This document shows, in pieces, positions 23,021 to 44,492 of a stretch of DNA of 64,000 nucleotides (within the stretch, counting starts at the first letter, position 1; every line of letters begins with the position of its first letter). Source of the DNA: Desulfobacteraceae bacterium UBA2174 (GTDB taxonomy: Bacteria > Desulfobacterota > Desulfobacteria > Desulfobacterales > UBA2174); NCBI GenBank assembly GCA_002327445.1, contig DCWA01000011.1, positions 13,945 to 77,944 on the forward strand, written 5' to 3'. A program made the translations under genes and the position numbers. The notes below the pieces were generated by a model, which made no database searches, had not been told where the DNA came from, and saw nothing but the letters and a program-made list of their open reading frames with translations.

Positions 23021-23048
23021 TTGGGGATAGAGGAAAAAGGAGCACTAA

Positions 23049-26801: not shown

Positions 26802-26967
26802 CTCCGATCCTCGTCTTGGCCCGGCTCGAAAGGGCGGTTCTGCACGGCGAGGTGCCCGAAGATGTGCACATCGCCCTCGGGCGTCGAGGACTCTGGCATG
26901 GCCTCGATGCTTCCGGCAGGCTCGGTTGGGCGCGGCTGGCCCGGGCGGCCGGCGAGAAAGAGATATA

Positions 26968-29400
26968 TCAATGCCAGTTGATCAGTTTTTTGCGTGCTTT
27001 TGCGAGGTCTTCGGCTTCTTCCGGGAAGGTCGCCGGCAGTTTGAGGGCCTGCCGCAACTGGGCGAGAGCGGCTTCGCGCCGTCCCATGGCATGGTAGACC
27101 TTGGCCAGGCTGTACCGATGGGATATGCGATCTTTTGTCGCAATTGCCCGCAGCAGGAGGCTTTCCGCTTTTTCCAGCGAGGCGGGGGGGAGTCCACCAT
27201 AGACAAATCCGACGAAAGCCCCGGTCCAGGGCGGCAGGGAAGCAACCTTGTAATGCCAGCGGCTGAGCACAAGCAGGGAAATATCATCGTCGGGATCGAG
27301 GGAGAGGGCTTTCTCGATGTTTTCCTTAACCTTGCGAGAGAGGCGGATCCGCTCCCTTACATTGACATCTTCGGCCCGGGCTCCCAAGGCGACCGCCAGC
27401 CATTTGTATCCTTCGTCATTGCGCAGGTCCGCCTTGATGGCCTGTTGCGCCAATGCCTCCGCACGGCGGAAATGAGCGGATTTTTTGCGCGGGTCGCTGC
27501 TTGTCCGGCCAAGTTCGTACTGGTCGTACGCCTGGCGCCATAGGGGTATCGCCTGAGTTTTAACGGCTGTAACCGTGGAAGAGGGGGGCTGAATGACTCC
27601 CCCTACCGAAGGGGTGCCGGATAGAAAGCTCAAAGGTATGGACAGGACGGCAGACAAGAGAAGCATGTGAAACGGTTTCACTGGCGCTACCGTTCCGGTG
27701 GAAACCCTCGTGGGTTCGCTGCGATCGAGAACCACGGTCTTGTCCTTGATGCCGTAAACCCGGTCCGCAACTTTGACCAGCGCGGGCTGATGAGATATGG
27801 TAAGCATTGTGACTTTACCGCGGAGGCCGGCCAGAGTTTCGCAAATTGCTTTTTCGCTCTCGGGATCGAGGGCGCTTGTCGCTTCGTCGAGAATCAGGAG
27901 AGCCGGCCGATGGGCAAGCGCGCGGGCAATGGCGATACGCTGGCGCTGGCCGCCCGACAGTTGGGAACCGCGTTCCCCGACAATAGTCTGCAGCCCTTCC
28001 GGCATTGCCGAGACAAAATCCCGGGCTCCAGCGGCACGAAGCGCTGCTTCTGCATCGGTCGCATCGAGCCCGGAATCCCCCAGGGTGATATTGGCCAGAA
28101 TGGAATCGTGAAGAAGGACCGTGTCCTGGGGAACGTAGCCGATTTTGCTGCGCCAGTATTTCACGTCCATGTCACTCATGGGCACGCCGTCCACCAGCAC
28201 CTCCCCCTGCTGTGGACGCAGGAGGCCGGTCACAAGATCCACCAGGGTGGTTTTGCCGGCCCCCGAAGGCCCGATTACCGCAATGGAGGCTCCGGCGGGG
28301 ATCTCAAGGGATACCGATTTCAGAATCTGGACTTTGCCATAACTGAAGCTGACCCCGTCGAAACGCAGATTTTTTTCCAGCTCCACCTTTTTCTGACCGA
28401 GGTTCGGCTCTTGTTGCAGGTTGGCATCGTCGATTTTTTGTTGCAGCGACCAGAATGCACTTTCGCAGGTGCCCATTTCCTGGAGCTTGCGCTGCATCTT
28501 GCCGAATTCGCCGAGAAGCCGCGCCAGCAGAAAAACCATTACCATGACGCTCGGCAGATCATAGTTCCAAAGGACCAGCGTTGCATAGAGCCCTGCCACT
28601 ATGATGAGAATCAGGAACGGTTCCTGGAGGCTTTTCAGTATGGCTTTGCTGTAGACCTGTTTGCGCAGCGCCTTATTGAGCTTGAGGGTATCCTTCTCGA
28701 GCATTTTTTCGGCCAACTGCTCCCGTCCCATCGCTTTCAGCGGTTTTACCGATTGCAGGCAATCGGTTAAGCGGGAAAGCAGGGACTGCATCAAAGAGGT
28801 TTCCTGTCTGCCGGCCTTTTTTGCTTTGCGTATGAGGCGATTGAGTAAAACCATCAGCAGGCACCCGGCCGCAAAGGCCACGACACTGGCTTTCCAGGAG
28901 ATCATCAGGGCGACCACTGCATAAACGAAACACGTTACCATGTAGGTAACGGCCAAAGTCCCGTGCACGTAGGCAGTAGAGGCCCGTATGACTTCGCTGG
29001 CGGCAGAATTAGCCAGGCTGCCTATGGGGTGGCTAATATAATACTCCCAGCGGGTTCCAAGAATGGCACGCAGCAATGTAAGGCGCAGGTCTGTTGCCAC
29101 CAGGGCAACGGTGTACCCGACTTTGCGGTCGGCCAGCAGCACTAAAGCGCTTTTGAGAAGAACGCCTGCAACCACAACCATCAACAAGGAGGAGGCTGTC
29201 GGCGCAATACCCATGGCATGCAGTGCGGAGGTGACGGTTTTCCCGATCCCGGAATTCTTGGTGCCGCCAACGGCGATGTTAAGCATCGGCAAAAGGGCGG
29301 TCAGGCTGATTCCCTCCATTAAGCCGGCGAGAAGCTGGGCCAGGAGCATGGTGAGGGTATGCCGGGGGTAAGTCCGCAAAAAGTGAAGCATAAGTCGCAT
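26968..29400 (-). CDS. MsbA-like ABC exporter (6-TM domain + NBD) fused in frame to a hydrophobic anchor and a ~210-aa TPR-like domain; possibly two genes
   Basis: 810-aa ORF. The TMD covers residues 1-300. The NBD has [25 protein letters not shown] and LILDEATSALD, and ends ...ADRVYGIKDKTVVLDRS. With no stop, it continues as ...VKPFH-MLLLSAVLSIPLSFLSGTPSVGG (signal-peptide/TM-like; internal ATG at 27666). A helical-repeat domain follows (...AHFRRAEALAQQAIKADLRNDEGYKWLAVALG...YHAMGRREAALAQLRQALKL). Confidence 0.75.
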   Translation of the reverse strand: MRLMLHFLRTYPRHTLTMLLAQLLAGLMEGISLTALLPMLNIAVGGTKNSGIGKTVTSALHAMGIAPTASSLLMVVVAGVLLKSALVLLADRKVGYTVALVATDLRLTLLRAILGTRWEYYISHPIGSLANSAASEVIRASTAYVHGTLAVTYMVTCFVYAVVALMISWKASVVAFAAGCLLMVLLNRLIRKAKKAGRQETSLMQSLLSRLTDCLQSVKPLKAMGREQLAEKMLEKDTLKLNKALRKQVYSKAILKSLQEPFLILIIVAGLYATLVLWNYDLPSVMVMVFLLARLLGEFGKMQRKLQEMGTCESAFWSLQQKIDDANLQQEPNLGQKKVELEKNLRFDGVSFSYGKVQILKSVSLEIPAGASIAVIGPSGAGKTTLVDLVTGLLRPQQGEVLVDGVPMSDMDVKYWRSKIGYVPQDTVLLHDSILANITLGDSGLDATDAEAALRAAGARDFVSAMPEGLQTIVGERGSQLSGGQRQRIAIARALAHRPALLILDEATSALDPESEKAICETLAGLRGKVTMLTISHQPALVKVADRVYGIKDKTVVLDRSEPTRVSTGTVAPVKPFHMLLLSAVLSIPLSFLSGTPSVGGVIQPPSSTVTAVKTQAIPLWRQAYDQYELGRTSSDPRKKSAHFRRAEALAQQAIKADLRNDEGYKWLAVALGARAEDVNVRERIRLSRKVKENIEKALSLDPDDDISLLVLSRWHYKVASLPPWTGAFVGFVYGGLPPASLEKAESLLLRAIATKDRISHRYSLAKVYHAMGRREAALAQLRQALKLPATFPEEAEDLAKARKKLINWH

Positions 29401-29599
29401 TTATTCGTCCTTGAGCAGCCCCGGGAAGAGTACGATGATATAGCCCTTTTTTATAACATGATACACGGATCGAGGGAAGCGGACACGGTTTTCGGGCAAA
29501 AAAACCGGTTGAAAACGCACCGGCAGATAACCTATTCTGTTAAATTCGCACCTGTTCTTCCGTCGCTACCGCCATCCCCAAGGAGATTTTTCGGGCATC

Positions 29600-29775
29600 C
29601 AGGCAGACCTGTGGCTCTCGCAGGATGGTCGAGGAGTTGGGAGAGGCCGGCTACCGATGTTGGCCGCTATCGGGTCCGCAGCCTGATGCGCAGGTTGGGT
29701 CTCGGGGCCAAGACGCCGAGGCGCTACAAGGTGACCACCGACAGCAATCACAAGCATCCGGTGGCCCCTAGGATA
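29600..29775 (+). pseudogene. Short fragment of an IS3-family transposase (OrfB N-terminal region)
   Basis: Two frames read ...GSRRMVEELGEAGY and DVGRYRVRSLMRRLGLGAKTPRRYKVTTDSNHKHPVAP. This is the classic IS3 OrfB box (R.MR..GL....RR...TTDS.H...VAPN). It is about 60 codons and frameshifted, and is embedded in the spurious 5' part of track ORF 29359..30987. Confidence 0.6.
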
Positions 29776-29829
29776 AATTCTGTCTTCGTTTTGAACGGGT
29801 CACCATGCCGTAGAAGGGGATTTTGTATC

Positions 29830-30987
29830 GTGGTTCGAGTTGGATTCCTTTTCAATCATTATTTCATTCATCAAGTGCCTCATGCGGCTCCTTATGCTTT
29901 TGAGTTGTCGAGGCGTTATCCGAATATCGATGTCTTTATCGCATGCTCCTCTCGTCAAGAGATGAACTTTGCACAAGCCATCGCATCGCTCTATCCCGGA
30001 CATCGCTGCCAATTCACGAAACTTAAGATCCCCTGGTATTACAGATGCGTCGATCCGATCATATCCAAGTGGATATTCATGCGCAAAAATATCGTTCTCC
30101 GTCATAATCTCAATTTTTTTCGGGGACTGGACGCGCTTGTGTCGCCGGAGCGCCATTGTGTCAAGCTGCGCACCAAATATGGCCTGAAAGATTTGATCCT
30201 GATCAACACCCGTCATGGCGCAGGTGATAGGGAGGGGAGCTTCGATGACCGATCCGGTTCCTTTGATTTTACCCTTTTGCCGGGACAAAAATATGTTGAT
30301 CGGCTCAAAGACTTGGGCTACCTGGCGAAAGGGCGCTATGCCGTGGTCGGCTACCCGAAATTCGAAGTCGTCCGTGGCCTGAGGCGGAACGTTCCGCGAC
30401 TTTTCAACAATGATAATCCTACTATAATATATAATCCCCATTTTGACCCATCGGTCTCCTCCTGGAAGCCGATGGGGGTGGATGTTCTTGAATTTTTCAA
30501 TAAAAACAGAGCTTTTAACGTGATTTTGGCCCCCCATGCGGTGCTTTTTAAAAGAACCCACCGGCATCATGCCTCGCTTCCCGGCAAATACCGTTTAATC
30601 CCGAATATTCATGTCGATACAGGCAGTAACGCTTTAGCCGATATGACCTATACGCTTGCAGCCGATATCTACCTTGGGGATGTCAGCAGTCAAGTCTATG
30701 AATTTCTCCTGGAACCCCGTCCCTGTATTTTCCTTAACGGACATAAAGTCGCATGGCAGGGCAATCCATACTATGCGCATTGGAGGCTGGGGCAGGTAGT
30801 CGATAAAATTCAACCGGATTTGGGCCAGGCCCTGGAGCGGGCATTTACCGCACATCAGCAGTTTTTGGAAAAACAGCATGAGGCTTTCGTTTACACTTTC
30901 TATACTGAGGTAGGGACTACGGCGGCGGAGAGGGGAGCCGACGCCATAGCCAACTTTATTCTGACTTCGTCTAGTTTCCATCCATAA
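29830..30987 (+). CDS. TagB/TagF-like (CDP-glycerol glycerophosphotransferase-like) protein; start uncertain
   Basis: This is the 3' 385 codons of track ORF 29359..30987. The candidate start is GTG 29830, 9 nt after AGGGGA. Patterns PTIIYNPHFDP..., NVILAPHAVLF, ...LADMTYTLAADIYLGDVSSQVYEFLLEPRPCIFLN resemble the Glyphos_transf family (..DvlITDYSS...dfl.l.kPiif). It has the lowest G+C seen (21/60 on line 29821-29880). Confidence 0.45.
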   Translation: MVRVGFLFNHYFIHQVPHAAPYAFELSRRYPNIDVFIACSSRQEMNFAQAIASLYPGHRCQFTKLKIPWYYRCVDPIISKWIFMRKNIVLRHNLNFFRGLDALVSPERHCVKLRTKYGLKDLILINTRHGAGDREGSFDDRSGSFDFTLLPGQKYVDRLKDLGYLAKGRYAVVGYPKFEVVRGLRRNVPRLFNNDNPTIIYNPHFDPSVSSWKPMGVDVLEFFNKNRAFNVILAPHAVLFKRTHRHHASLPGKYRLIPNIHVDTGSNALADMTYTLAADIYLGDVSSQVYEFLLEPRPCIFLNGHKVAWQGNPYYAHWRLGQVVDKIQPDLGQALERAFTAHQQFLEKQHEAFVYTFYTEVGTTAAERGADAIANFILTSSSFHP

Positions 30988-31035
30988 CTGGCTTACCGAT
31001 CATGGAAGGCGTTGTATCCCCGTTTGGGTGTCGAT

Positions 31036-32238
31036 TCAGGCGGGAGCATGCCGCAAACCGACATTTGCGGCCAAATCTCCGAACAGGGATACAATCCGCT
31101 CGATCTGCTCCTCCGTATGGGCCGCGCTGACGCTGCAGCGCAGCAGGCTTTCCCCCTTGGGGGCTGCCGGCGGCCATACCAGATTGACATAGATGCCGTT
31201 TTCGAGGAGTTCTTTCCAGCAAGCGAGGGTTTCTTCCTTCGATCCCATGTACACGGCAACCACCGGTGTCGGTTCGGGGCCGAGGCGGTATCCCAGCTCC
31301 GAAAGCCCCTCATAGAGCCTGTGGGCGTTTGCCCAGAGACGCTCGCGCAGATTCGCTCCGGCGGCAAGAACCTGAAGCGCCCGGCGCACCGAGGCGATGG
31401 TGGCCGGGGACGGAGACGCGGTAAAGAGGTAGGAGCGGCTCGCATAGCGTACCAGGTCGAGCTCGGGATGGTTGCTCACGCAGAATCCGCCGATGGCCCC
31501 GAGGCTTTTGCTGAAGGTGCCGATGATGAAATCGACGTCATCCATACAGCCGCACTCTTCCCCGAGCCCTCTGCCATTTTGGCCGAGAACCCCCAGCGAA
31601 TGGGCCTCGTCGACCAAGAGCCAGAAGCCGTATCGCTTCTTCAGGGAGACGATTTTGGCCAGAGGCGCCCGGTCGCCGAGCATGCTGTAGATTCCCTCGA
31701 CGATGATCAGGGTATTCTTTGCCCGGTCACCCAGGCGGCGCAGGCGCTTTTCGAGGTCGACGGTATCGTTGTGCCGGAAGCGGAGGATGTCGGCTCCCCC
31801 CATCCGGCAGCCGTCGTAGATGCTGGCATGGGAGTCGCCGTCTATAATTAAGGTGTCCCCGGGGCCGGTGAGGGTGGAGATGACGCCCAGGTTGGCGACG
31901 AATCCCGTGGAGAAGACGATGGCTTTGGCGCAGCCGAAGAACTCGGCCAGTTCCCTTTCCAGGGCACGATGCCCGGCGAATGTGCCGTTGGCCGTTCGCG
32001 AGCCGGTGGTGCCGGTCCCTTCAGATCGGGTAGCCTGGCAGGCCGCTTCGATGCACCGGGGATCGAAGGTCAGCCCGAGGTAGTTGTTGGTACCCGCCAG
32101 AAGCACCTTGCGGCCGGCTATGCGGGCTTCGGTTGGCGAGAGGATCTCCTCAATCTCCACGTTGAATGGATCGATCCCCATCTCATCCAGCGCCTGGCGC
32201 GCTTGGGCAACGAATGCGAGTTTATCGAAGAGTCCCAT
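31036..32238 (-). CDS. spt: Serine palmitoyltransferase (alpha-oxoamine synthase, PLP-dependent)
   Basis: 400 aa. It aligns by eye block-for-block with Sphingomonas SPT as I remember it: SPTEA.I.G...GTNNYLGLTFDP, GTGTTGSRTANGTF, AIVFSTGFVANLGVISTL, DSHASIYDGC...ILRFRHND, VEGIYSMLGD, LVDEAHSLG..GQNGRG, GTFSKSLGAIGGF (PLP lysine), LLRCSVSAAHT. An ACP gene lies immediately upstream. Confidence 0.9.
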   Translation of the reverse strand: MGLFDKLAFVAQARQALDEMGIDPFNVEIEEILSPTEARIAGRKVLLAGTNNYLGLTFDPRCIEAACQATRSEGTGTTGSRTANGTFAGHRALERELAEFFGCAKAIVFSTGFVANLGVISTLTGPGDTLIIDGDSHASIYDGCRMGGADILRFRHNDTVDLEKRLRRLGDRAKNTLIIVEGIYSMLGDRAPLAKIVSLKKRYGFWLLVDEAHSLGVLGQNGRGLGEECGCMDDVDFIIGTFSKSLGAIGGFCVSNHPELDLVRYASRSYLFTASPSPATIASVRRALQVLAAGANLRERLWANAHRLYEGLSELGYRLGPEPTPVVAVYMGSKEETLACWKELLENGIYVNLVWPPAAPKGESLLRCSVSAAHTEEQIERIVSLFGDLAANVGLRHAPA

Positions 32239-32241
32239 GTC

Positions 32242-32499
32242 TCAGGCCTCGATTTCTTTTTGAATCCGCAAAACGAAATCCCTCACCGTCCGGATTTCGG
32301 CTAGCTCGTTCAAGGTGAAGGAAATATCGTAGGCATCCTCCACTTCCTGAACAAGTTCCATCACCCGAAGGGAGTCCAGACCAAGATCGTTGACAATTTC
32401 CATTTCCTCCCGGATGCATTCCGGAACCTTGTCGAAGCGCTCGAGGATCGCCTTGACCGCTTCAAATATCTCCGCATAGTCTTTTTGGGGCACAGCCAT
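32242..32499 (-). CDS. Acyl carrier protein (dedicated, sphingolipid-type)
   Basis: 85 aa with the phosphopantetheine site LGLDSLRVMELV. 3-nt gap to spt. Confidence 0.9.
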   Translation of the reverse strand: MAVPQKDYAEIFEAVKAILERFDKVPECIREEMEIVNDLGLDSLRVMELVQEVEDAYDISFTLNELAEIRTVRDFVLRIQKEIEA

Positions 32500-32530
32500 G
32501 TTCCTCTACATTAAGAGCTTGATGAACGCG

Positions 32531-33499
32531 TCACCCGAGCGTGCGAAGCAACCCTTCGCGCAGCCCGACTTCCGGAGCCCAGCGGGTGACGCGCCTGAAA
32601 TCCGAATGATCGCCGACCCAGTCATCGTGGCACAGTTCTCCAACCTTGCCCGGCGTCAGCATCGGCAGGTATCCCGTGAGACGGGAAAAGGCCAAGTTGA
32701 CATGGGCCGCGGCATCCAGGGCGATCCGCGGAACATCGATACGCCTGACGGGACGCCGGTAGAGCTCGGAGGCTGTTTCCCGGACCTCTTCCCAGCAGTA
32801 CCCTCCCGCCTTGCCGTCGTGCAGCTCGAAGCAGCCGCCGCTGCCGGCGCCGCTCACCAGCCAGCTCAGGACCGCCTCCGCAAGGTCGTCGATGAAAATC
32901 AGCGAAAAGCGCCCTCGCCCACCTGCCGGGACAAAGGCGATTCCCCGCCGGAGCCATCGCAGCAGGGGAAGCATTTCGCGATCTCCGGGGCCATACACCG
33001 CCGGCGGCCGGATGATCGTCCAGTCGAGCCCGTCCGCCGCGCCGCGCAGGACCTCTTCCCCTTGCCGCTTGCTTGCGGCATAGCAGGAGAGTTGCGGCGA
33101 TCTGGCAGCCAGGGAGGAGATCAGAAGAAGGCGCGGAGAGTCCACCGAATTCCGCGCCATGGGTACGATCTTTGCCACTCCGGAAACGTTGGCCGGCACA
33201 AAGTCGGACACCGATGCGCCGCGCACGGATCCGGCACAATAAATAACGGCCGAAGCTCCGTCGAGAAGTTGCCTCAGACTTTCCTCACGGTTCAACTCGC
33301 CATGAATCCATGACAGCCCCGGCGCGTTGAAGCACGACGATATGGAGGCCGGGCGTACCAGCGCCCTGACGCGAATATTTTCCCGCAGGAAGCGATGAAT
33401 GAGGGATTTGCCGATGAAGCCGGTCCCGCCGGTCATGGCGACGGTTGTGACGTGGGCGGGCGCGGCATCATTGCGCGACTCGCGTACGGGTTCGACCAT
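32531..33499 (-). CDS. NAD(P)-dependent epimerase/dehydratase-family reductase (CerR-like candidate)
   Basis: Track ORF 32531..33787, trimmed to ATG 33499 (GGAG RBS; lies just after the ligase stop at 33504). The Rossmann motif is VAMTGGTGFIGKSL, and YAASK provides the catalytic YxxxK. Its position between the ACP and acyl-AMP ligase genes matches the Caulobacter spt-acp-cerR-ACP-synthetase order. Confidence 0.7.
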   Translation of the reverse strand: MVEPVRESRNDAAPAHVTTVAMTGGTGFIGKSLIHRFLRENIRVRALVRPASISSCFNAPGLSWIHGELNREESLRQLLDGASAVIYCAGSVRGASVSDFVPANVSGVAKIVPMARNSVDSPRLLLISSLAARSPQLSCYAASKRQGEEVLRGAADGLDWTIIRPPAVYGPGDREMLPLLRWLRRGIAFVPAGGRGRFSLIFIDDLAEAVLSWLVSGAGSGGCFELHDGKAGGYCWEEVRETASELYRRPVRRIDVPRIALDAAAHVNLAFSRLTGYLPMLTPGKVGELCHDDWVGDHSDFRRVTRWAPEVGLREGLLRTLG

Positions 33500-33503
33500 G
33501 CCC

Positions 33504-35270
33504 CTATCTCCCGGTTCGGCCGGCACACTGCAAGGGGGCTGAGAACAGATCCCGGTTCCGCCGGAGGAAATCGGCCCGCGCCATGCTTCTCGATATCTTC
33601 CCGGATGACGTTTGCGGCAGGGTGTGCGGGGGGACGAGCTCGACCATGCAATCGATGCCGAACTCTTCCCTGACGCGACCGCGCAGGGCCTGCACCAGGC
33701 GGTCGCGTTCCGTCCCGTCGAACTGACGGCACTGAACGACCAGAACCACGGTCTCGTCTTCTCCAGCCTCGCCGATGGAAAATGCAACAGCGTCCCGCGA
33801 ACGGATTCCCGGCATCTGCTCGGCTATGCATTCAATATCCTGCGGCCATATATTCCGGCCGTTGACGATGATCATGTCTTTTTTGCGGCCGGTGATAATC
33901 ATTTGGCCGCCGGCCAGATAGGCGAGGTCTCCGGTATTGAGCCAACCGTCGGGAGACAGGACTTCCCTTGTGGATTCCCGGTCGCCGAAGTATCCGCTCA
34001 TGACGCTGGGTCCGCGCACATGCAGCACCCCGCAGCGCCGCTCGGGCAGGACCATCCCCCGCTCGTCGCGGATCTCGATCTCGTACCCGGGAAGGGGCGC
34101 GCCGCAGAAGACGAGTTCTCTCGTCTTTCCATTGCTTTTGCTATCTTCAACGGGCATGGCTGTTCCGTTTTTCGCGAGCGTCTCGGCACTTATCCGGTCG
34201 ATCACCAGACCTTCGCCCAGGGGGGCGAAACTGACGGCAAGGGAACATTCCGCCAGGCCGTACGAGGCGACAAAGGCCCGGGAATGGAAGCCGGCCGGTT
34301 CCAGCAGCCGGGCGAAACGTTCGAGGATATCCGCACGGATGGGCTCGGCACCGATCCCGGCAATGCGCCAGGAGCTCAGATCGTACGGTTCGATTTCGGT
34401 GGGGCGGATGCGCCGCGCACATAGGGCGTATCCGAAGGTGGGGCTGTAGGAAATTGTGGCGCGGTTCCTGGAAATCAATGCCGGCCAGAGCCGCGGTCGC
34501 ATGGCGAAATCCCGCGTGCTCAGGTAATCGATGGAAAGCTGCGAAGCCATCGGCGCGAGAAGAAAGCCCACAAGCCCCATATCGTGGTAGAAGGGGAGCC
34601 ATGAGGCGCACCTGTCTCCGGGGCGGACACCGAGCCCGTTGCGGATGATCCCTTTCAGGTTGGCCATGACCGCTTTCTGCGTGATCACGACCCCGCGCGG
34701 GAAACGGGTGCTGCCCGAAGTGTATTGCAGGTAGGCGACTTCATCGCGATGAGGATGCTGCAGCGGCAAATCCGTCTCCGGAAGGGCGTCGAAGCAGGCT
34801 GGTTCCCCGACATGGACCAGATTCAGACCGTCAACGGCATCGGCCAGGAAGGGGCAGAAGGAGCTGGAACTCATTGCGGCCTTGGCTCCGCAGGAGACCA
34901 GGAGTTTGCGCAAATTTTCGCTAACGGCCTGGCGGCCGCCCAGATGGACTGCCGCGGGGAGAGGGACGGGAACCAGTCCGGCATACTGGCAGGCGAAGAA
35001 AAAGCGCACAAAATCGGCATCGGTACCGGCGATCAGGGCCATGCGCTCGCCCCGCTCGAGGCCCAGCCCCAGGAGCTTGCCCGCCAGCGACCGGGCACCG
35101 TCTCGCAACCGCGCATAGGAGAGGGAGGCTTCAAGCGCCCCTTTGCCGGAATAGAAATTGATCCCCGTCGTGCCTTCGGCTGCATAATCGAGGGCCTCGG
35201 CCAGGGTCTGAAAATCGCCTTGACGCAAGGCGATGGAGTTTTCGGTCGGCGTCATTTTAAGTTCATTCAT
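33504..35270 (-). CDS. Fatty acyl-AMP ligase / acyl-ACP synthetase
   Basis: 588 aa. AMP-binding motifs YLQYTSGSTRFPRGVVITQ, LPFYHDMGLVGF, ...YGLAE..., TGDLAY, and C-terminal ...PQTSSGKISR. The FAAL-type N-terminus is ...DFVRFFFACQYAGLVPVPL. Confidence 0.85.
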   Translation of the reverse strand: MNELKMTPTENSIALRQGDFQTLAEALDYAAEGTTGINFYSGKGALEASLSYARLRDGARSLAGKLLGLGLERGERMALIAGTDADFVRFFFACQYAGLVPVPLPAAVHLGGRQAVSENLRKLLVSCGAKAAMSSSSFCPFLADAVDGLNLVHVGEPACFDALPETDLPLQHPHRDEVAYLQYTSGSTRFPRGVVITQKAVMANLKGIIRNGLGVRPGDRCASWLPFYHDMGLVGFLLAPMASQLSIDYLSTRDFAMRPRLWPALISRNRATISYSPTFGYALCARRIRPTEIEPYDLSSWRIAGIGAEPIRADILERFARLLEPAGFHSRAFVASYGLAECSLAVSFAPLGEGLVIDRISAETLAKNGTAMPVEDSKSNGKTRELVFCGAPLPGYEIEIRDERGMVLPERRCGVLHVRGPSVMSGYFGDRESTREVLSPDGWLNTGDLAYLAGGQMIITGRKKDMIIVNGRNIWPQDIECIAEQMPGIRSRDAVAFSIGEAGEDETVVLVVQCRQFDGTERDRLVQALRGRVREEFGIDCMVELVPPHTLPQTSSGKISRSMARADFLRRNRDLFSAPLQCAGRTGR

Positions 35271-35358
35271 TCATAGAACCCCTCTGTCCGGGAACCCCTC
35301 TGACGGGCCTTCGCCTTATCTCCGCGGGGGCTCCCGGCGACGAGGCGGATCCGTTGTA

Positions 35359-36204
35359 TTATTGCACAGGTTCAATTCCATAGGAAGGCTTTCCTATCAC
35401 GCTTTCCCGACGTCCTGAAAGGATTTTCTCCGTAAGAGCCCAGTCCTCGACCTTGTCGACGTCCACCGCCGCTTCCGCCTCGGGCATCCAGACCACGCCG
35501 GCGCGGGCATCCATCACGGACGACATGCGGGCCAATCCTTCTTCAAGGGTCAGGCGGCCGAGAAGATAGCGCAGGACAGCCATCAACCCGAGGGATTTTA
35601 CGATTCTAAGGGGGTGCTTGCGCTGCTCTTCGACCCGCCGCCAGAAGATTACCGCATTGCCGGCCCGGGGCGTGAGCAACGCAAAGAGATTGCATCCGCA
35701 GTATCCGCCATCGCGCAGGCGCGTTACGGTCCGGCGGCTTTCGGGAAAGGCTGCCGCCACCATCTCGGAGCGGGCGAGGCCGGCAACGACGTCGCATCCC
35801 GATTGGGCGGCCTTGGTGCAGAAACGATCGACCATCTCCGGCGTGAGGAGCGCGTGATCCGCCGTGGTCACCAGCACCGGCCGGTCGGGCGGCAGTTCGC
35901 CCAGGGCCGCTTGGGCGCTACGGCTGGGCGATGGTTGGTTCTCGATCCAGCGAACCTTTGCGGAAGCGATCCGGGCATCGAGCTCGGGGGATTTGCCCGG
36001 GAGGCGGTCCGAGGAGCCGCATACAAGGCATGAATCTATGACGGCCGCACCTTCGAGGGCATCGAGCACGCGCAGGATCATGGGCCGCCCGGCAACGGGG
36101 ACCAGCGCCTTGCAACTGACGCCGGCCGCCTTGACGAGGGGGTCTTCGGCGCCGCGGTCGCCGGCGAGAATAACGGCGACAAACTTTACGGGAACAGGGT
36201 TCAT
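35359..36204 (-). CDS. Nucleotidyltransferase-family protein (MobA/CobY-like NTP_transf_3 fold)
   Basis: Track ORF 35359..36225. I prefer ATG 36204, which overlaps the stop of the upstream gene (ATGA), giving MNPVPVKFVAVILAGDRG...KALVPVAGRPMILRVLDAL. Confidence 0.65.
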   Translation of the reverse strand: MNPVPVKFVAVILAGDRGAEDPLVKAAGVSCKALVPVAGRPMILRVLDALEGAAVIDSCLVCGSSDRLPGKSPELDARIASAKVRWIENQPSPSRSAQAALGELPPDRPVLVTTADHALLTPEMVDRFCTKAAQSGCDVVAGLARSEMVAAAFPESRRTVTRLRDGGYCGCNLFALLTPRAGNAVIFWRRVEEQRKHPLRIVKSLGLMAVLRYLLGRLTLEEGLARMSSVMDARAGVVWMPEAEAAVDVDKVEDWALTEKILSGRRESVIGKPSYGIEPVQ

Positions 36205-37403
36205 GTCAGCGGATCTCTCGCGCAAGCGAGGTCCTTGCGGTAAATGCGATAGCGCTTGTAGGACTTTCCGCCGATCGACTCGATGATCGCGCGCATTCCG
36301 ATGTTGTTCTCAAGTATCCAGGACGCCTCTACTTCTTCCAGGCCGCGGCGGCGCGCCGAATCCTGCAGCGAGGTGATCAGCAGCAGAGCCAGGATGGCCC
36401 CGAGACGGTTCCCCTGATAACGCCGCCGAACTCCCATCAGCGGCACACGGCCGGTTTTCACGCCGCCGACCTTGAGCCGCCAGAGCAATTTGAGCCAGCC
36501 CAGGGGGAACAGCCTGCCGTCCAGATCCCTGATCGCTTCGTTGAGATTGGGGAAAACCACCATCATTGCCGCCGGTTCGCCGTCAACTTCGGCGATGCGG
36601 ACAAAGTCGGTCGGTACGAAGAGTTTGAGGCTTTTCCCCAAATCGTTGAACTCCTCCGTGGTAAATGGCAGGAAGCCCCAGTTGTTGGCCCAGGCATCTT
36701 CGAAGATGTCCTTGAGGATTGCCAGGTCTTCCGTGAATTCCCGGCGACGCATCGGTCGCAGGCGTACCTGTCCGGCAACGCGTGAGTTCAGTGACTCAAG
36801 CTGACGGGGCGCGGCAAAGTCCGACCGGATGCGATAGGCCAAGAGATCCTGCTCGGCGGTAAACCCCTGTTCTTCGATACGCCGGGAATAATAAGGCAGG
36901 GCATGCCCCATCATGATGACAGGGGGCGTGTCGAAGCCTTCGACGAGCAAGCCGCATTCCTGATTGATCGAAAGGTTGAAGGGCCCCCGGATGCGTTTCA
37001 TGCCCCGTTCGCGCAGCCAGGCTTGAGCGGTATCGAAAAGGGCTTGAAAGACCTCCGGATCATCCTGTGCCTCCAGCATTCCGAAAAAACCGGTATGGTC
37101 GTCGTAGCGCTGCAGATGGAGCTGGTCCACCTGGGCGCTGATGCGTCCGACGGTTTTGTTTCCGCGCCGGGCGATCCACGCCTGAAACGTGGCGTGTTCG
37201 AAATAGGGATTGTTCTTTGAGAGATGCGCCCTGCGTTCGAGGAGCAGGGGAGGAATCCAGGCCGGGTCATGGGCATACAGCGATCCGGGAAGATGCAGAA
37301 ATTCGCGGCGTGCGGCCTTGTCGCCTACTGGCAGGATTTGCAGCCGGGCGGTTGAGGAAGTGTCCTTTTCGGCCGTTGCCGATTCATGGGGTCGGGTGGT
37401 CAT
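36201..37403 (-). CDS. GNAT-fold N-acyltransferase, bacterial ceramide synthase (bCerS)-like candidate
   Basis: 400 aa. ...FLHLPGSLYAHDPAWIPPLLLERRAHLSKNNPYFEHATFQAWIARRGNKTVGRISAQVD...GFFGMLEAQDD...GPFNLSINQECGLLVEGFDTPPVIMMGH.... The C-terminal GNAT core is ...GVRRRYQGNRLGAILAL.... The call rests on the fold pattern plus its position in the spt operon. Confidence 0.6.
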   Translation of the reverse strand: MTTRPHESATAEKDTSSTARLQILPVGDKAARREFLHLPGSLYAHDPAWIPPLLLERRAHLSKNNPYFEHATFQAWIARRGNKTVGRISAQVDQLHLQRYDDHTGFFGMLEAQDDPEVFQALFDTAQAWLRERGMKRIRGPFNLSINQECGLLVEGFDTPPVIMMGHALPYYSRRIEEQGFTAEQDLLAYRIRSDFAAPRQLESLNSRVAGQVRLRPMRRREFTEDLAILKDIFEDAWANNWGFLPFTTEEFNDLGKSLKLFVPTDFVRIAEVDGEPAAMMVVFPNLNEAIRDLDGRLFPLGWLKLLWRLKVGGVKTGRVPLMGVRRRYQGNRLGAILALLLITSLQDSARRRGLEEVEASWILENNIGMRAIIESIGGKSYKRYRIYRKDLACARDPLT

Positions 37404-37505
37404 GGGTATCCGAAAGTACCTTTCCTTGGAGGTCCGGGGAAGCAGCTCGGGGCATGGCCCGCAACCGCTTTCTCAATTTATTTCACCGAACCGGGACAGC
37501 GATCT

Positions 37506-38264
37506 TTATACCGCTCCGCGCATGGCGCCGGCCTGTCTTTCCGCGATGGCGCGCACCACTTTTGCGGCATGTTTCAGGTCCGCGGGGCAGTCGACCTCGC
37601 CCCAGAGCAGCCCTTCGATGCAGCAGGTCCAGACGGGCGTCTTCCGGGCCAGTTCGTCGATAACGGACAGATACCAGCGCTTGAGGGCGGCGGGATGACG
37701 CATGACATCTTCCACGGCTTGCCGGAACAGCTCCGGCCCCTCTCCGCGGAACAGCAGCATGCCGATGGACTCGGCGCGAACCTGGTCGAGGGGGAGGTCC
37801 TTGCCGATGCGTAGCAGGCGCGCGCCATCCAGAATGACCTTCATGTCATCGTCGTCATAGCGGTTTTTGCGATCGATGGTTACCGTTACCGGGCGCGGCT
37901 CGGAGGCAAGGAGGGTTTCCAGGACAGGGGCCTGAAAGAGGGTGTCGCCGTTCAGGAGGATGAAATCCTCCGTCATCTCGGACCGGGCGATCCAGCAGGT
38001 GCCCAGGTTGTCGGCCACGGAGTGGAAGGGATTGAAAAGGATGCGTACGCCGTCTTGTCCGTAGCGGTCCTTGAGCCGTTGCTCGACCTTGTCGGCCCCG
38101 TACCCGACCACGACGCAGATGTCTTCGACGCCGCACTTGATCAGTTCATCGATCTGCCATTCAACCATGGTCCGGCCATGAATGGGAACGATACACTTGG
38201 GCCGTTCAGCGGTATAGGGAAGCAGTCTCTTGCCCTGCCCTGCGCTGAGAATAATGGCTTTCAT
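37506..38264 (-). CDS. LicC-like phospho-alcohol cytidylyl/nucleotidyltransferase
   Basis: Track ORF 37506..38303, trimmed to ATG 38264 (GAGGAG RBS). MKAIILSAGQGKRLLPYTAERPKCIVPIHGRTMVEWQIDEL is a G-rich NTP loop. The C-terminal ...WYLSVIDELA...LWGEVDCPADL resembles LicC/IPCT-type enzymes. First gene of the minus-strand lipid operon. Confidence 0.7.
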   Translation of the reverse strand: MKAIILSAGQGKRLLPYTAERPKCIVPIHGRTMVEWQIDELIKCGVEDICVVVGYGADKVEQRLKDRYGQDGVRILFNPFHSVADNLGTCWIARSEMTEDFILLNGDTLFQAPVLETLLASEPRPVTVTIDRKNRYDDDDMKVILDGARLLRIGKDLPLDQVRAESIGMLLFRGEGPELFRQAVEDVMRHPAALKRWYLSVIDELARKTPVWTCCIEGLLWGEVDCPADLKHAAKVVRAIAERQAGAMRGAV

Positions 38265-38307
38265 GCTGTTTCGATCTCCTCTTCGTCTTGCGATAACCGG
38301 CAATTTC

Positions 38308-38337: not shown

Positions 38338-38428
38338 CAAATTTTAACAATCTAGAGAAAATGTTGGTAAGAGTCAAGGGAATTGCCGTTGCGGGAACTT
38401 ACATTTATCTCTTGCAGACTCATTTGAA

Positions 38429-39523
38429 GTGTTTGGAGCCGCTTTGATTCTGGAGCGCTATATCGTAGGGGAAATTATGGCCCGCCTGGTGGCGGTCTGC
38501 GCGGTTTTGATCATGATTTTCGCCGGCTACAGCGCCGTCCGCTTTCTTAACGATGCGGTCAACGGCCTGCTTTGCGGCGAAACGGTTGTCGTCCTGGTCG
38601 GGCTCAAGGTACTCATAGCCCTTGAAGTGCTTCTTCCGGTCACGCTTTATCTGGCGGTTGTCCTTGCCTTGAGCCGCCTGCATGCCGACAGCGAGATGAC
38701 GGCCTTGGAGGCATGCGGCGTGGGTCCGGGGCGAATCGTCATCTCGGTTTTTTCCCTGGCGCTTTTCCTAGGCCTCGTGGTTGCCACCCTTTCGCTCTTC
38801 GTCCGTCCCCGGGCTTATGAGAAAATCTATGCCCTGGAAGCCAAGGGGAAGAATGACTTCGACATCGCCAAGGTTGAGGCCGGGCGGTTCTACGAGTTGG
38901 GCGAGGAAGTGGTCTTTTTTGCCGAAAAGCTCGATCCGGCTGGTAACCGGGCCGGCAATGTGCGGGTATGGGAGTTGGAATCGGACAGGCGGAAAGTGAC
39001 AACGGCCCGCGACGCCCACCAGATCGATGGTCCGGGAGAGGGACAAAAGGCCATCGTTTTCCGGGATGGCTACCGCTATGTGCTGAATCGGAAGACGGGA
39101 GCCGACCTGATTACCCACTTCAGCAAAAGCGTATTTCGGCTCGATACCGACCGGACCCCTCCCGCCGAATATCGCCGCAAGGCCGCATCGACGCTGCATC
39201 TGGCCCGCTCACCGGCGCCGGAGGATATGGCGGAGTTCCAATGGCGGCTTTCTACGGGCATTTCCACCGTCCTGATGTCCCTGCTGGCGATCCCCCTGAG
39301 CCGGGTTGCCCCGCGGCGCGACAAATACGGCAAAGTGACCCTAGCCATCGTGTTGTTCTTCGCCTTTTACAATCTTAACTTGATAGCCAAGACCTGGGTC
39401 GAAAAACAGGTGGTCGGCGCCGTGCCCGGCATATGGTGGGTGACGGCCCTGCTCGGCGTTCTGGTTCTGATCATGCTTCCGGGACGCAATCCCTTTCGCC
39501 GTCTTTTGGGGCGCCGCCCCTGA
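38429..39523 (+). CDS. lptF: LptF-like permease (YjgP/YjgQ family)
   Basis: 364 aa. ...ILERYIVGEIMARLVAVCAVLIMIF...LEVLLPVTLYLAVVLALSRLHADSEMTALEACGVG... is followed by a periplasmic beta-jellyroll-sized insert and C-terminal TMs. The GTG 38429 start is uncertain; a TTG at 38444 gives the typical MILERY... N-terminus. Confidence 0.7.
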   Translation: MFGAALILERYIVGEIMARLVAVCAVLIMIFAGYSAVRFLNDAVNGLLCGETVVVLVGLKVLIALEVLLPVTLYLAVVLALSRLHADSEMTALEACGVGPGRIVISVFSLALFLGLVVATLSLFVRPRAYEKIYALEAKGKNDFDIAKVEAGRFYELGEEVVFFAEKLDPAGNRAGNVRVWELESDRRKVTTARDAHQIDGPGEGQKAIVFRDGYRYVLNRKTGADLITHFSKSVFRLDTDRTPPAEYRRKAASTLHLARSPAPEDMAEFQWRLSTGISTVLMSLLAIPLSRVAPRRDKYGKVTLAIVLFFAFYNLNLIAKTWVEKQVVGAVPGIWWVTALLGVLVLIMLPGRNPFRRLLGRRP

Positions 39524-39542: not shown

Positions 39543-40607
39543 GTGAAAATTCTCGACCGTTATCTGGCAGCCGTTTTTTTGCGCACATGGCTCAATGTCA
39601 ATCTTGTCCTGGCCGGGCTGCTCAGCTTTCTTGAGCTGGCCGGCCAACTGGACGACGTCGGCAAGGGGAGCTACAGCTCGAGCGACGCCCTGCTGTACGT
39701 TGCTCTGACCCTGCCGGACCGCATGATGGATCTGGCTCCGCCGAGTGCTCTGCTCGGAAGCATCGTCGCCCTTGGGCTGTTGTCCAAAAACCTCGAACTG
39801 CTCGCCATGCGGGCCAGCGGAATCTCGATCCAACGTGTCGGGTGGGCTTTTGCGAAACCTGCGCTTCTTACCCTTCTTGCCCTCCTGCTTGGCGCCCAGT
39901 TCGTCATTCCGTCCCTGGAGCAGACGGCCTGGACCCTGCGTGAAACCGCGCTTTCGGAGGCGGGAACCATTCTGCCGCGAGGGGATTTCTGGACGAGAAG
40001 CGCAAGGCGCTTTATAAACCTGCGCACCAGCAGGGAACACGGGACTCAGGCGGCCGACATCTACGAGTTTGACGAGGAGAGGAGGCTGACGCGCTATATC
40101 CATGCTCGGGAGACAAAGATCGGCCCCGAGGGGGAATGGGTATTGCACGGAGTGCGGCAGAAGATGATCACGGACCGGGGAGTGGCGGTGCGCGAAATCC
40201 CCCAGCTTGCCCTTCCCGGCCTGCTCACCAGCAAGGAGGCGGCTCAACTGGCGCTGCCACCGCAGACCCTCTCTTTGACGGAACTGGCCAGGGTCATCGG
40301 CAATCGGCAGAAACGGGGAGAAAATCCGGGGCGCTACCGGCTGGCGCTCTGGCAGAAGCTGAGCCTTCCGGTGATGACCGGCGCGATGATCATGATATCG
40401 CTTCCGTTTGTGTGCCGCTCGACCCGCGGTTCCGGTCTCGGCTGGCTCATCATGGTCGGGGCCATTACCGGTGTGGCGTTCTTCTTTCTCAATCAGATTC
40501 TTGGCTATACCGGCCTGATCCTCCAGATATCGCCCGCCTGGACAACTCTCGTTCCTGCTCTGGCGGTTCTGGCCGGCGGGGTTTTCCTGACGCGAAGGAT
40601 CCCCTGA
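39543..40607 (+). CDS. lptG: LptG-like permease (YjgP/YjgQ family)
   Basis: 354 aa, GTG start. MKILDRYLAAVFLRTWLNV...LPDRMMDLAPPSALLGSIVALGLLSKNLELLAMRASGIS.... No lptB-type ATPase is adjacent. Confidence 0.7.
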   Translation: MKILDRYLAAVFLRTWLNVNLVLAGLLSFLELAGQLDDVGKGSYSSSDALLYVALTLPDRMMDLAPPSALLGSIVALGLLSKNLELLAMRASGISIQRVGWAFAKPALLTLLALLLGAQFVIPSLEQTAWTLRETALSEAGTILPRGDFWTRSARRFINLRTSREHGTQAADIYEFDEERRLTRYIHARETKIGPEGEWVLHGVRQKMITDRGVAVREIPQLALPGLLTSKEAAQLALPPQTLSLTELARVIGNRQKRGENPGRYRLALWQKLSLPVMTGAMIMISLPFVCRSTRGSGLGWLIMVGAITGVAFFFLNQILGYTGLILQISPAWTTLVPALAVLAGGVFLTRRIP

Positions 40608-40634: not shown

Positions 40635-41600
40635 TCAGGGATTGCGGGCAGGCAGGCGGATTTCCTTCTCCGCGCCGGCTATGAATGCGTGCTGCACTGG
40701 AGCATAGGCGCGAACGGCGAGACGCAGCCGCCAACCGTCTGCCGTGCGTTGAAAACGGCAAATGCGATAACGGGCCGTGCGCTTCGGGATGGGGCCGGCA
40801 TTGGATGCCGAGGGAACCCCGAGAACGGGGATAGGATGCCTCCCGGCGACGAGTTCATCCTCCTTGGAGACGTGGGCATGCCCGTGAAGAATCAGTTCCG
40901 CCCCTTGGCGGGCAACAACCTCGCCGAAAAGGCGGGCGTCGGTCAACCGCTTGCGCCAGGAGATACTGCCGGGAATCGGCGGATGGTGGATCAGGACAAT
41001 GCGCAGCAGGCCGAGCCGGCCGGTCCGCTCCAGCATTTCTTCGAAGCGCGCCAGTTGCCGGCGGCCAAGACTGCCCACGGCGACAAACGGCATGCTGGGG
41101 CGGGCGGATGAAAGACCGATCAATGCCACCGGACCTCGCACTCTCAAACTCGGATAAGCCCCGGCGCCGTCATCGTCTCCCGCCAGATAGGGGGCCCACC
41201 GGCTGAATGTGTCCTGCCATGAGGTGGCGACGTAGGCGTCGTGGTTGCCGGGGACCACCGTAACCTTTTCCGGCGGGCCAAGGCGCTTGAGCCACAGGGC
41301 TGCCTGACGGAACTCGTCCGGCAACCCCAGGTTGGTCAGATCTCCGGTTACGGCTACATGGTCCGGCGCCGCTTCGGCCAGGTCCAGCAGCAGCGCGTCA
41401 AGAACGTGCGGCGAGTGGATGTGGCGGCGGCGACACTGCCAGGAGAGATAGCCGAGCAGGCGTTTGTTGAGCAGCAAGGTGGGGCGTACCCCGGTCGGAG
41501 AAGAGAGATGCAGGTCCGATATATGGGCAAGAACAAACGTTTCTTTCTCCTTGTTCCCGGAAGTAGGGGCGGTTCGCGAACCGCCCCCTACGCGAAACAA
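40635..41600 (-). CDS. Calcineurin-like metallophosphoesterase; start codon unresolved
   Basis: Motifs are FVLAHISDLHL, AVTGDLTN, VPGNHD and ...LIHHPP...HGHAH. A strong AAGGAG (41552-41547) precedes the domain, but there is no ATG/GTG/TTG between it and HISDLH. The nearest in-frame start is TTG 41600, upstream of a palindromic hairpin. The track ORF extends to 41711. Confidence 0.7.
   Translation of the reverse strand: MFRVGGGSRTAPTSGNKEKETFVLAHISDLHLSSPTGVRPTLLLNKRLLGYLSWQCRRRHIHSPHVLDALLLDLAEAAPDHVAVTGDLTNLGLPDEFRQAALWLKRLGPPEKVTVVPGNHDAYVATSWQDTFSRWAPYLAGDDDGAGAYPSLRVRGPVALIGLSSARPSMPFVAVGSLGRRQLARFEEMLERTGRLGLLRIVLIHHPPIPGSISWRKRLTDARLFGEVVARQGAELILHGHAHVSKEDELVAGRHPIPVLGVPSASNAGPIPKRTARYRICRFQRTADGWRLRLAVRAYAPVQHAFIAGAEKEIRLPARNP
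41564..41590. repeat. GC-rich near-perfect palindrome (hairpin) in the 5' region of the phosphoesterase gene
   Basis: taggggcggttcg|cgaaccgccccc-ta has 12-13-bp arms and one extra C in the right arm. Confidence 0.8.
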
Positions 41601-42002
41601 CGGACACCCAATCGCAGGAAGGGTGAAGGATATTCTCAGACAGTGTCTTACGGCCGGACCAGGCGCCGAAACCCCTCCCCGCCTCGAGACTCCCCTTGCG
41701 AGAGGTACCAACCGCGGGTCCCGTCGTTTATCCGCGCCATGGAAGGAGTCTACCTATAACTATACCAGCTTGAGCCATAGATCAAGAGTCGCTTTGCTTT
41801 AAATTCGGTGCCATAATAGAAAAAAACCCGGCCTGCTTCGCCTTGACATATAAGGAACCTCTTGCTATGTCTTTCCTCAATAAACCGGGGTGACTCCACA
41901 GACTTTCCGGATTCCGGCGAAGGCCGGATCCAGAGGGGTTACCCATGGTTATTGAAATATTACCTCGCTGTGCTCTTGCATCAGCAAAACAGATAAAGAA
42001 AG

Positions 42003-43229: not shown

Positions 43230-43255
43230 AGCAGGACGACTTGGTCATGGAGCTT

Positions 43256-44487: not shown

Positions 44488-44492
44488 TTCTT

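Follow-up and report, generated by a model that had tools for sequence, protein, structure and literature searches.

A probable sphingolipid synthesis and export gene cluster of the Caulobacter/Escherichia coli type in a sulfate-reducing member of the Desulfobacterota

We analyzed a stretch of 64,000 nucleotides from Desulfobacteraceae bacterium UBA2174 (GenBank assembly GCA_002327445.1, contig DCWA01000011.1, positions 13,945 to 77,944 of the forward strand), hereafter the window, with a focus on a putative sphingolipid gene cluster. A first-pass annotation, made from the sequence alone, had placed seven minus-strand genes here, and all seven were found as complete open reading frames (ORFs) at 31036–38264. 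Read upstream from spt, they encode a serine palmitoyltransferase (SPT), an acyl carrier protein (ACP), a reductase, a fatty acyl-AMP ligase, a nucleotidyltransferase, a GNAT-fold N-acyltransferase, and a second nucleotidyltransferase, with intervening gaps of 3, 31, 4, 88, −4, and 102 nt. The −4 value reflects an ATGA, read directly from the sequence, in which the stop codon of the GNAT gene and the start codon of the neighboring NTP_transf_3 gene overlap, and the translational coupling claimed for this pair thus holds. The earlier figure of 3–30 nt was given for the gaps of the four-gene core; those of 88 and 102 nt lie outside it.

Our analysis bears directly on gene identity, homology, synteny, fold, intactness, and selection at this locus. 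Identical metagenome contigs that had been gene-called independently carry the same seven genes, and the identical locus occurs in at least four independent assemblies; Spt and GNAT proteins of identical sequence were found in NCBI, JGI, ENA, and Logan assemblies. In comparison with two relatives, the ratio of nonsynonymous to synonymous substitution rates (dN/dS) was 0.15–0.41 for each of the seven genes, which argues that they are real genes under purifying selection rather than chance ORFs. The catalytic motifs are also complete (GTFSKS in Spt, DSL in the ACP, GGTGFIG and YAASK in the reductase), and those cited in the first-pass annotation, such as GTFSKS and DSL, are present in the proteins. 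Pseudogenization, which we considered in view of nearby insertion sequence (IS) fragments and of the loss of a HIT-family gene and the swap of a lipid kinase described below, is excluded by the complete ORFs and the dN/dS values.

The gene at the downstream end, spt (31036–32238), encodes a 400-aa pyridoxal 5′-phosphate (PLP)-dependent alpha-oxoamine synthase. The protein scored 630.4 bits on the SPT equivalog model NF047599 (cut-off 500), whereas the sister models for bioF (342 bits, cut-off 426), KBL (330, cut-off 460), ALAS (232, cut-off 339), and CqsA-type enzymes (213, cut-off 428) all stayed below their cut-offs; the BioF, KBL, ALAS, and CqsA identities are ruled out on this basis. Among solved structures, the best matches were the SPTs of S. 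wittichii (2x8u, 433 bits) and S. paucimobilis (2jg2, 418 bits), as against 283 bits for a Sphingobacterium SPT, 239 bits for KBL, and at most 194 bits for BioF. Neither the model cut-offs nor the structure-match scores group the protein with BioF or KBL, the placement that the first-pass annotation had singled out as damaging to its Spt call, and that call stands. The GTFSKS motif with the PLP lysine lies at residues 240–245 and, together with a C-terminal LLRCS segment, is common to Spt and S. wittichii SPT in an alignment. With the product of the gene that RefSeq annotates as spt in E. coli, the protein shares 57.6% identity. Judged by these sequence comparisons, the alpha-oxoamine synthase is a true SPT. 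An enzyme that takes alanine, glycine, or cysteate would instead lead to 1-deoxy-ceramides or sulfonolipids rather than canonical sphingolipids. Black Sea lipidomics tentatively ties Desulfobacterota to 1-deoxy- and sulfono-1-deoxy-ceramides (PMC11334938), and a solved cysteate-C-fatty acyltransferase is detectable as a homologue of Spt at 208 bits. However, serine-specific SPTs score twice as high, the SPT equivalog is passed, the GTFSKS and LLRCS segments are shared with S. wittichii SPT, and the lipid kinase and phospho-head-group genes of the cluster need a C1 hydroxyl that only serine gives. We regard a non-serine substrate as very unlikely.

The next three genes match the order aasR-cerR-acpR-spt known from Caulobacter and E. 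coli (PMC11324152), in agreement with the ACP, reductase, and ligase reported upstream of spt in the first-pass annotation. Just 3 nt upstream of spt, in the position known from Caulobacter and E. coli (PMC9386255), is the gene for a dedicated AcpR-like ACP (85 aa, 32242–32499); its product matched PF00550 at 3.3e-11, carries the DSL phosphopantetheine site at residue 42, and is 44% identical to its E. coli counterpart. A CerR-like NAD(P)-dependent reductase of the short-chain dehydrogenase/reductase (SDR)/epimerase family (322 aa, 32531–33499) follows, with matches to PF01370 and PF13460 and with the GGTGFIG and YAASK motifs. Over 304 aa, it is 39.8% identical to the product of the epimerase-family gene that holds the same position in E. 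coli; E. coli 'epi' ECD_02852 is listed as the counterpart of CC_1164 (PMC9386255). Caulobacter CerR is reported to be periplasmic and peripheral at the inner membrane; the N-terminus of the window SDR, MVEPVRESRNDAAPAHVTTVAMTGGTGFIGK, leads straight into the Rossmann motif, with no hydrophobic signal sequence evident by inspection. Lastly, the AasR-like fatty acyl-AMP ligase/acyl-ACP synthetase (588 aa, 33504–35270) scored 806 bits on the fatty acyl-AMP ligase (FAAL) model NF006624 (cut-off 600) and aligns over 572 aa, at 49% identity, with the 'fatty acyl-AMP ligase' that E. coli encodes beside spt. SPT, AcpR, and AasR of E. coli B have been characterized biochemically, and for both Caulobacter and E. 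coli B the ligase was shown to acylate its cognate AcpR, and not CoA or the housekeeping AcpP (Padilla-Gomez et al., PMC9386255).

The predicted ceramide synthase is a 400-aa tandem-GNAT N-acyltransferase (36201–37403). Across 373 aa (residues 21–392, 93% of its length) it is 50.9% identical to E. coli YghO (E=4e-131), a match first found by tblastn of the GNAT protein against plasmid records; the yghO-bearing 'plasmid' record proved to be an unannotated E. coli chromosome, and the RefSeq collection was used instead. The N-acyltransferase genes of dihydroceramide synthesis listed by Padilla-Gomez et al. (PMC9386255) include CC_1154, yghO (ECD_02850), Swit_3908, and Neut_1100. An AlphaFold2 model built from 42 homologues was of high confidence (pLDDT 93.5, pTM 0.90), and its top Foldseek matches were the tandem-GNAT proteins 2wpw, 7q3a, 5kf1, and MshD (E=1e-15 to 1e-12, TM 0.55–0.71). 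At E≤1e-30, the family comprises 1,314 clusters at 50% identity, nearly all of about 380 aa. An earlier, very diverse alignment of the family offered no stretch conserved enough for a locus scan; scanning GTDB species genomes with an alignment of 14 closer sequences returned 80 loci, Caulobacter not among them, and counts of species loci below refer to this set.

These results place the GNAT protein in the CerS/bCerS/YghO family, as far as homology and predicted fold can, and agree with the ceramide synthase role proposed for it earlier. A rival reading is that the protein only happens to be encoded beside spt genes and is in fact an unrelated acetyltransferase, of the N-acyl-amino-acid or aminoglycoside type. 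It matches PF00583 (GNAT) of Pfam only weakly (23.5 bits), no NCBIfam model covers it, a sequence search of the PDB gave no match at E≤1, and the nearest solved folds belong to small-molecule acetyltransferases, such as MshD and a glucosamine N-acetyltransferase, at about 14% identity. Against this, the identity to YghO extends over nearly the whole protein, and a ligase (FAAL) or Spt gene lies within 10 kb of the GNAT gene in 56 of the 80 species loci, which represent Desulfobacterota, Nitrospirota, Beta- and Gammaproteobacteria; among the 24 loci without such a neighbor, several are short contigs. Moreover, CC_1154 is itself 41–47% identical (E 1e-105 or better) to the syntenic Neut_1100, Avin_44290, and FOB45_16305 (PMC11324152). 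We consider an unrelated acetyltransferase to be extremely improbable.

The first-pass annotation had presented all seven genes as a ceramide pathway. Five of them do make up a ceramide set; the other two, the nucleotidyltransferase genes that it had left unnamed, are head-group genes, and the functional cluster extends beyond the seven to about 26968–47566. The CC_1153-like, MobA/CofC-type nucleotidyltransferase (NTP_transf_3; 281 aa, 35359–36204, minus strand, ATGA-coupled to cerS) matched PF12804 at 1.4e-18 and occupies the position of Neut_1101 and FOB45_16310; the GNAT gene is followed by an adjacent NTP_transf_3 gene in 66 of the 80 species loci. The CC_1152-like sugar-phosphate/alcohol-phosphate nucleotidyltransferase (NTP1; 252 aa, 37506–38264, minus strand; PF12804, PF00483) is 59% identical to the P. 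asuensis protein whose gene holds the position of FOB45_16315, the CC_1152 orthologue in Pseudomonas luteola. Both CC_1152 and CC_1153 are required for ceramide di-phosphoglycerate (CPG2) in Caulobacter (PMC11324152).

Four further head-group genes lie beyond the seven. A CC_1158-like, calcineurin-type metallophosphoesterase (40635–41711, minus strand; PF00149) has a counterpart in 34 of the 80 species loci; CC_1158 is likewise described as a calcineurin-type phosphoesterase (S1 Text, PMC11324152). A CDP-alcohol phosphotransferase resembling CC_1159 (45281–46480, plus strand; PF01066, DTVDGKLAR motif) stands in the position of Neut_1104 and FOB45_16330, and a putative cytidylyltransferase of the Tam41/Mmp37 type, CC_1161-like (46619–47566, plus strand; PF09139 at 3.7e-06), in that of Neut_1106 and FOB45_16340. 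An ISL3-family transposase gene (47726–48760, plus strand) directly follows the latter, at one edge of the cluster. The fourth is a DAGK_cat lipid kinase similar to CC_1160 and ceramide kinase (43256–44323, minus strand; PF00781, GGDG motif), which is only 44% identical to the kinase of a relative, L001 (GCA_021849215.1, 89% nucleotide identity to the window), whereas the flanking genes reach 86–92%. Compared with L001, the window has a 3.66-kb insertion at 41564–45221 that contains a radical-SAM gene (42003–43229) and the divergent DAGK-family kinase, and the original kinase gene, between those for the CDP-alcohol transferase and the Tam41-like protein, has been deleted. The window kinase is thus a replacement copy that arrived with the radical-SAM gene. 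The best matches of the radical-SAM protein, to NirJ2, the tetraether lipid synthase Tes, and HpnH, are weak and all far under cut-off. In sum, all six families of ceramide phosphoglycerate (CPG)/CPG2 synthesis (NTP_transferase, NTP_transf_3, Metallophos, CDP-OH_P_transf, DAGK_cat, and Tam41) stand beside the ceramide genes.

The closest functional reference is the 17-gene Caulobacter crescentus locus CC_1152–CC_1168 (CCNA_01210–01226; Olea-Ozuna et al., PMC11324152), of which 13–14 gene families are also in the window. There, aasR-cerR-acpR-spt are CC_1165–1162, cerS is CC_1154, LptF2/LptG2 are CC_1156/1155, and the remaining assignments include a CofC/MobA-like protein (CC_1153), the ceramide kinase (CC_1160), a CDP-alcohol transferase (CC_1159), a Tam41-like protein (CC_1161), a phosphoesterase (CC_1158), and a HIT protein (CC_1157) (PMC11324152). 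The two loci share the order of the de novo genes (aasR-cerR-acpR-spt), the placing of cerS beside CofC/MobA-type and LicC-type nucleotidyltransferases and an LptF/LptG pair, and the presence of the kinase, CDP-alcohol transferase, Tam41-like protein, and metallophosphoesterase. They differ in where cerS stands: in the window, cerS and the nucleotidyltransferase genes share the strand of aasR and immediately precede it, at a distance of 88 nt, whereas in Caulobacter they are eight genes apart in another operon. The first-pass statement that Caulobacter encodes cerS elsewhere in its genome was mistaken, since CC_1154 is eight genes from spt within the same 17-gene locus (PMC11324152). The window cluster also has no homologue of the HIT protein (CC_1157), LptC2 (CC_1168), or the Wzx-type flippase (CC_1166), and instead has an MsbA-like ABC exporter; its host, unlike Caulobacter, belongs to the Desulfobacterota and is a strict anaerobe that reduces sulfate.

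Other loci fill in the comparison. The five ceramide genes are homologous at 40–58% identity to those of the E. coli yghO/spt locus (BL21 ECD_02850–02854; here STEC1585 chromosome 798545–821663), where RefSeq annotates fatty acyl-AMP ligase, NAD-dependent epimerase/dehydratase, acyl carrier protein, and spt in one operon near a second lptF/lptG. E. coli shares the order of this four-gene operon and the adjacent lptF/lptG pair with the window; by contrast, yghO there points away from the de novo operon, and the locus has no head-group genes of the CC_1152/1153/1159/1160/1161 types. E. coli K-12 has a disrupted version of this locus. The CPG2 clusters of P. luteola, Azotobacter vinelandii, and Nitrosomonas eutropha (PMC11324152, Fig 7, S2 Table) hold the same 13 families as the window. 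In our scan, the P. asuensis locus (L076) and the Nitrosomonas loci (L067–L078) match the published orders one for one, with proteins 42–62% identical to those of the window: P. asuensis reproduces the 13-gene P. luteola order FOB45_16280–16340, and the Nitrosomonas order GNAT-NTP3-LptF-LptG-CDPOH-DAGK-Tam41 equals Neut_1100–1106, the published orthologues of CC_1154, 1153, 1156, 1155, 1159, 1160, and 1161 (PMC11324152). In those genomes, unlike the window, the cerS-CC_1153 pair is divergent from a HIT-aasR-cerR-acpR-spt operon (Pseudomonas) or chromosomally distant from it (Nitrosomonas). The complete sister genome of Desulfoglaeba alkanexedens ALDC (CP040098.1) has the same seven genes in the same order and on the same strand, with a divergent LptF/G pair and 90–95% protein identity; it differs in its larger intergenic gaps and in having two GT4 glycosyltransferase genes downstream of spt in place of the window's TagB-like gene and ABC exporter. 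On these grounds, the window derives from a Desulfoglaeba-like organism of the Syntrophobacterales.

The placing of cerS on the same strand as the de novo genes, 88 nt from them, is mildly unusual. We compared the gap (35271–35358) with L001 by blastn and found that L001 12095–12573, which holds a HIT-family gene like CC_1157, is replaced by 38 nt in the window. A HIT gene is present at the corresponding position in 21 of the 80 species loci and is likewise missing from D. alkanexedens. This alignment shows that the 88-nt gap came about by deletion of the HIT gene. In relatives, the HIT gene comes first in the de novo operon, with translational coupling to the ligase gene and an 85-nt intergenic region ahead of it, and about 50 nt of this ancestral region upstream of the de novo operon persist in the gap. 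Where a ligase or Spt gene lies within 10 kb, cerS is co-directional with the de novo genes in nine of the 56 loci, all of the Desulfobacterota type, and on the opposite strand in the other 47. According to a published statement, bacterial cerS is 'always' in an operon distinct from that of the de novo genes; in its gene positions, at least, Desulfoglaeba departs from this rule.

Whether the seven genes would form one transcription unit or two is finely balanced. Two units, [NTP1-cerS-CC_1153-like] and [aasR-cerR-acpR-spt], with the second transcribed from a promoter kept in the 88-nt gap, would agree with the published rule; the surviving nucleotides of the ancestral upstream region could hold such a promoter, and the modules are certainly transcribed separately in the 47 loci where they lie on opposite strands. 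On the other hand, all seven genes share one strand, the gap is just 88 nt, and a consensus scan, which is weak evidence either way, predicted no sigma-70-like promoter or intrinsic terminator within 30500–38300, with promoter-like sites only upstream of the first gene, at 38341–38377. We put the two-unit arrangement at slightly below an even chance; the layout of the seven genes may also reflect a single transcript. No RNA family of Rfam was found in the whole window, and thus no riboswitch or leader that might account for regulation.

Genes for export flank the biosynthetic ones. Divergent from the seven genes is an lptF/lptG-type permease pair (38429–39523 and 39543–40607, plus strand) that passed the cut-offs of TIGR04407 (317 bits) and TIGR04408 (298 bits); about 45 of the 80 species loci, as well as E. 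coli, have such a pair next to the cluster, and LptF2/G2 are needed for sphingolipid transport in Caulobacter (bioRxiv 10.64898/2026.04.12.717747). On the other side, an 810-aa MsbA/HepA-like ABC half-transporter with a C-terminal TPR-like (RMD1-3) tail is encoded at 26968–29400 (minus strand; PF00664, PF00005, PF21033); its best NCBIfam matches, HepA and MsbA, were both under cut-off. In 16 of the 37 species loci with room for such a gene, a homologue directly follows spt on its strand, and these span Desulfobacterota, Nitrospirota, Beta- and Gammaproteobacteria. The bacterial sphingolipid flippase has been described as still unidentified, and an MsbA-like exporter is not discussed in the sphingolipid literature cited here. 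Since the exporter is conserved beside spt and the flippase is missing from the literature, the MsbA-like half-transporter is a candidate sphingolipid flippase.

Between this gene and spt, and convergent with spt, lies a gene for a 385-aa TagB/SpsB-like putative glycerophosphotransferase (29830–30987, plus strand). The protein had no Pfam match of its own, but its homologues (63–78% identity) carry PF04464 or are named CDP-glycerol glycerophosphotransferase. Caulobacter CC_1167 belongs to the same InterPro family as these homologues, and the window protein is possibly analogous to it. Beside the clusters of other lineages no such gene was found, and in the window it stands where sister genomes have glycosyltransferases downstream of spt. 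The ORF at 29359–30987 (plus strand) is composite, with a 5′ fragment of an IS3-type HTH_21 transposase followed by the TagB/SpsB-like gene. Together with the ISL3 transposase, the IS3 fragment near 29.4–29.8 kb suggests that the region has been reshuffled by mobile elements.

Collectively, the seven genes very probably form the core for biosynthesis in a bacterial sphingolipid cluster of the Caulobacter/E. coli kind, also called 'Rhodobacteria-type'. From characterized orthologues we infer each catalytic step of the following scheme. The AasR-like ligase would convert a free fatty acid and ATP to acyl-AMP and load the acyl group on the dedicated AcpR-like ACP, and Spt would condense L-serine with the acyl-ACP to 3-oxo-sphinganine. 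The tandem-GNAT enzyme of the CerS/YghO family would then N-acylate the amine from an acyl thioester, and the CerR-like SDR would reduce the 3-oxo group to give dihydroceramide; N-acylation before 3-oxo reduction follows the Caulobacter model (PMC11087976). The lipid kinase would form ceramide-1-phosphate, and the CC_1152-like and CC_1153-like nucleotidyltransferases, the Tam41-like protein, the CDP-alcohol transferase, and the metallophosphoesterase might build an anionic head group of the ceramide-phosphoglycerate type. Finally, the MsbA-like exporter and the adjacent LptF/LptG pair may carry the lipid towards the outer membrane.

Several points weigh against this assignment of the cluster. 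Our literature search found no lipid data for the window organism or for Desulfoglaeba, and no paper that ties Desulfoglaeba or Syntrophobacter to sphingolipids. The link to CC_1154 and CC_1164 runs via the E. coli, Nitrosomonas, and Pseudomonas orthologues and not through a direct alignment with Caulobacter. LptF and LptG pass the canonical models for lipopolysaccharide export, and by sequence the pair could be the sole, housekeeping copy. Furthermore, the enzymology of CC_1152, 1153, 1158, 1159, and 1161 is not settled even in Caulobacter (PMC11324152), and with the HIT loss, the kinase swap, and the TagB-like gene the head group may differ from that of Caulobacter.

The head group is the least certain step of the proposed pathway. 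A ceramide-based lipid could carry phosphoglycerol, phosphoinositol, or a glycerophosphate polymer in place of a Caulobacter-type (di)phosphoglycerate. The CDP-alcohol transferase is nearest to models of inositol-phosphate-type synthases, though far under cut-off, and NTP1 weakly matches inositol-1-phosphate cytidylyltransferase; beside spt stands the TagB/SpsB-like gene, or glycosyltransferase genes in sister genomes; and the altered HIT and kinase genes, as well as the unsettled Caulobacter enzymology, point the same way. Nevertheless, counterparts of all six CPG/CPG2 genes (CC_1152, 1153, 1158, 1159, 1160, and 1161) are present and are placed as are the orthologues assigned in the literature for Pseudomonas and Nitrosomonas. 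Another head group is thus possible, yet we think it rather unlikely, and a phosphoglycerate-type head group remains our preferred, still inferred, assignment. A more far-reaching proposal is that, in the Desulfoglaeba lineage, cerS was fused with the de novo genes into one transcription unit after the HIT gene was lost, that the cluster supplies these alkane-degrading sulfate reducers, which are strict anaerobes, with anionic phospho-sphingolipids of the Caulobacter type, and that the MsbA-like exporter downstream of spt flips these lipids; taken as a whole, we hold this to be doubtful and advance it tentatively.

The outer flanks of the window carry genes for housekeeping and efflux functions. 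The left flank (1–21700) is unrelated and holds genes for two family-5 solute-binding proteins, a permease, an M20 peptidase, and an MmgE/PrpD protein. A stretch of low G+C content at 22377–25436 (plus strand; 0.49–0.51, as against 0.60–0.70 in its flanks) contains a TetR regulator and a 795-aa fusion protein of unusual architecture, in which CmpB-like membrane, HD, B12-binding, and radical-SAM domains are joined. The right flank (48953–63546), likewise unrelated, encodes an ABC-2 exporter with HlyD, an AcrB-type RND pump with HlyD and OEP, a DUF169 protein, a 2-hydroxyacid dehydrogenase, and an SDR. The ORFs at 44803–45381 and 26674–27543 had no match in Pfam and are probably non-coding or of unknown function.

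The first-pass annotation had regarded sphingolipid genes as limited to a few lineages and a consolidated cluster as noteworthy for its rarity. Neither view holds up. Metagenomic surveys report Spt-like genes in about 40 phyla, the Black Sea study counts Desulfobacterota among the Spt-bearing phyla and finds Spt, bCerS, and CerR often clustered (PMC11334938), the GNAT family is as large as described above, and, of 5,426 complete E. coli genomes, 4,549 have yghO. The seven-gene order recurs in D. alkanexedens, and the 90%-identity cluster of the window Spt includes WP_211341259.1, named 'serine palmitoyltransferase [Desulfoglaeba alkanexedens]' in RefSeq. The window cluster is therefore of a known type of widely distributed sphingolipid synthesis and export cluster.

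What the locus adds is a set of particulars. Consistent with the metagenomic surveys, 'Rhodobacteria-type' AasR/AcpR/Spt/CerR/CerS genes, together with phosphoglycerate-type head-group genes and Lpt2 export genes, reach into the Desulfobacterota, for which Desulfoglaeba, a syntrophic, sulfate-reducing alkane degrader, offers an example from a cultivable genus. The cluster also provides a natural case of cerS possibly co-transcribed with the de novo genes, in a lineage that has lost the HIT gene and swapped the lipid kinase, and an MsbA-like exporter, conserved beside spt, that could be the missing flippase. These points leave the current picture of bacterial sphingolipid synthesis unchanged. 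If the fusion into one transcription unit and the role of the exporter were true, the Desulfoglaeba lineage would be an exception to the 'always' separate cerS operon, and its MsbA-like protein would be a candidate for the flippase that bacterial sphingolipid transport has been lacking.

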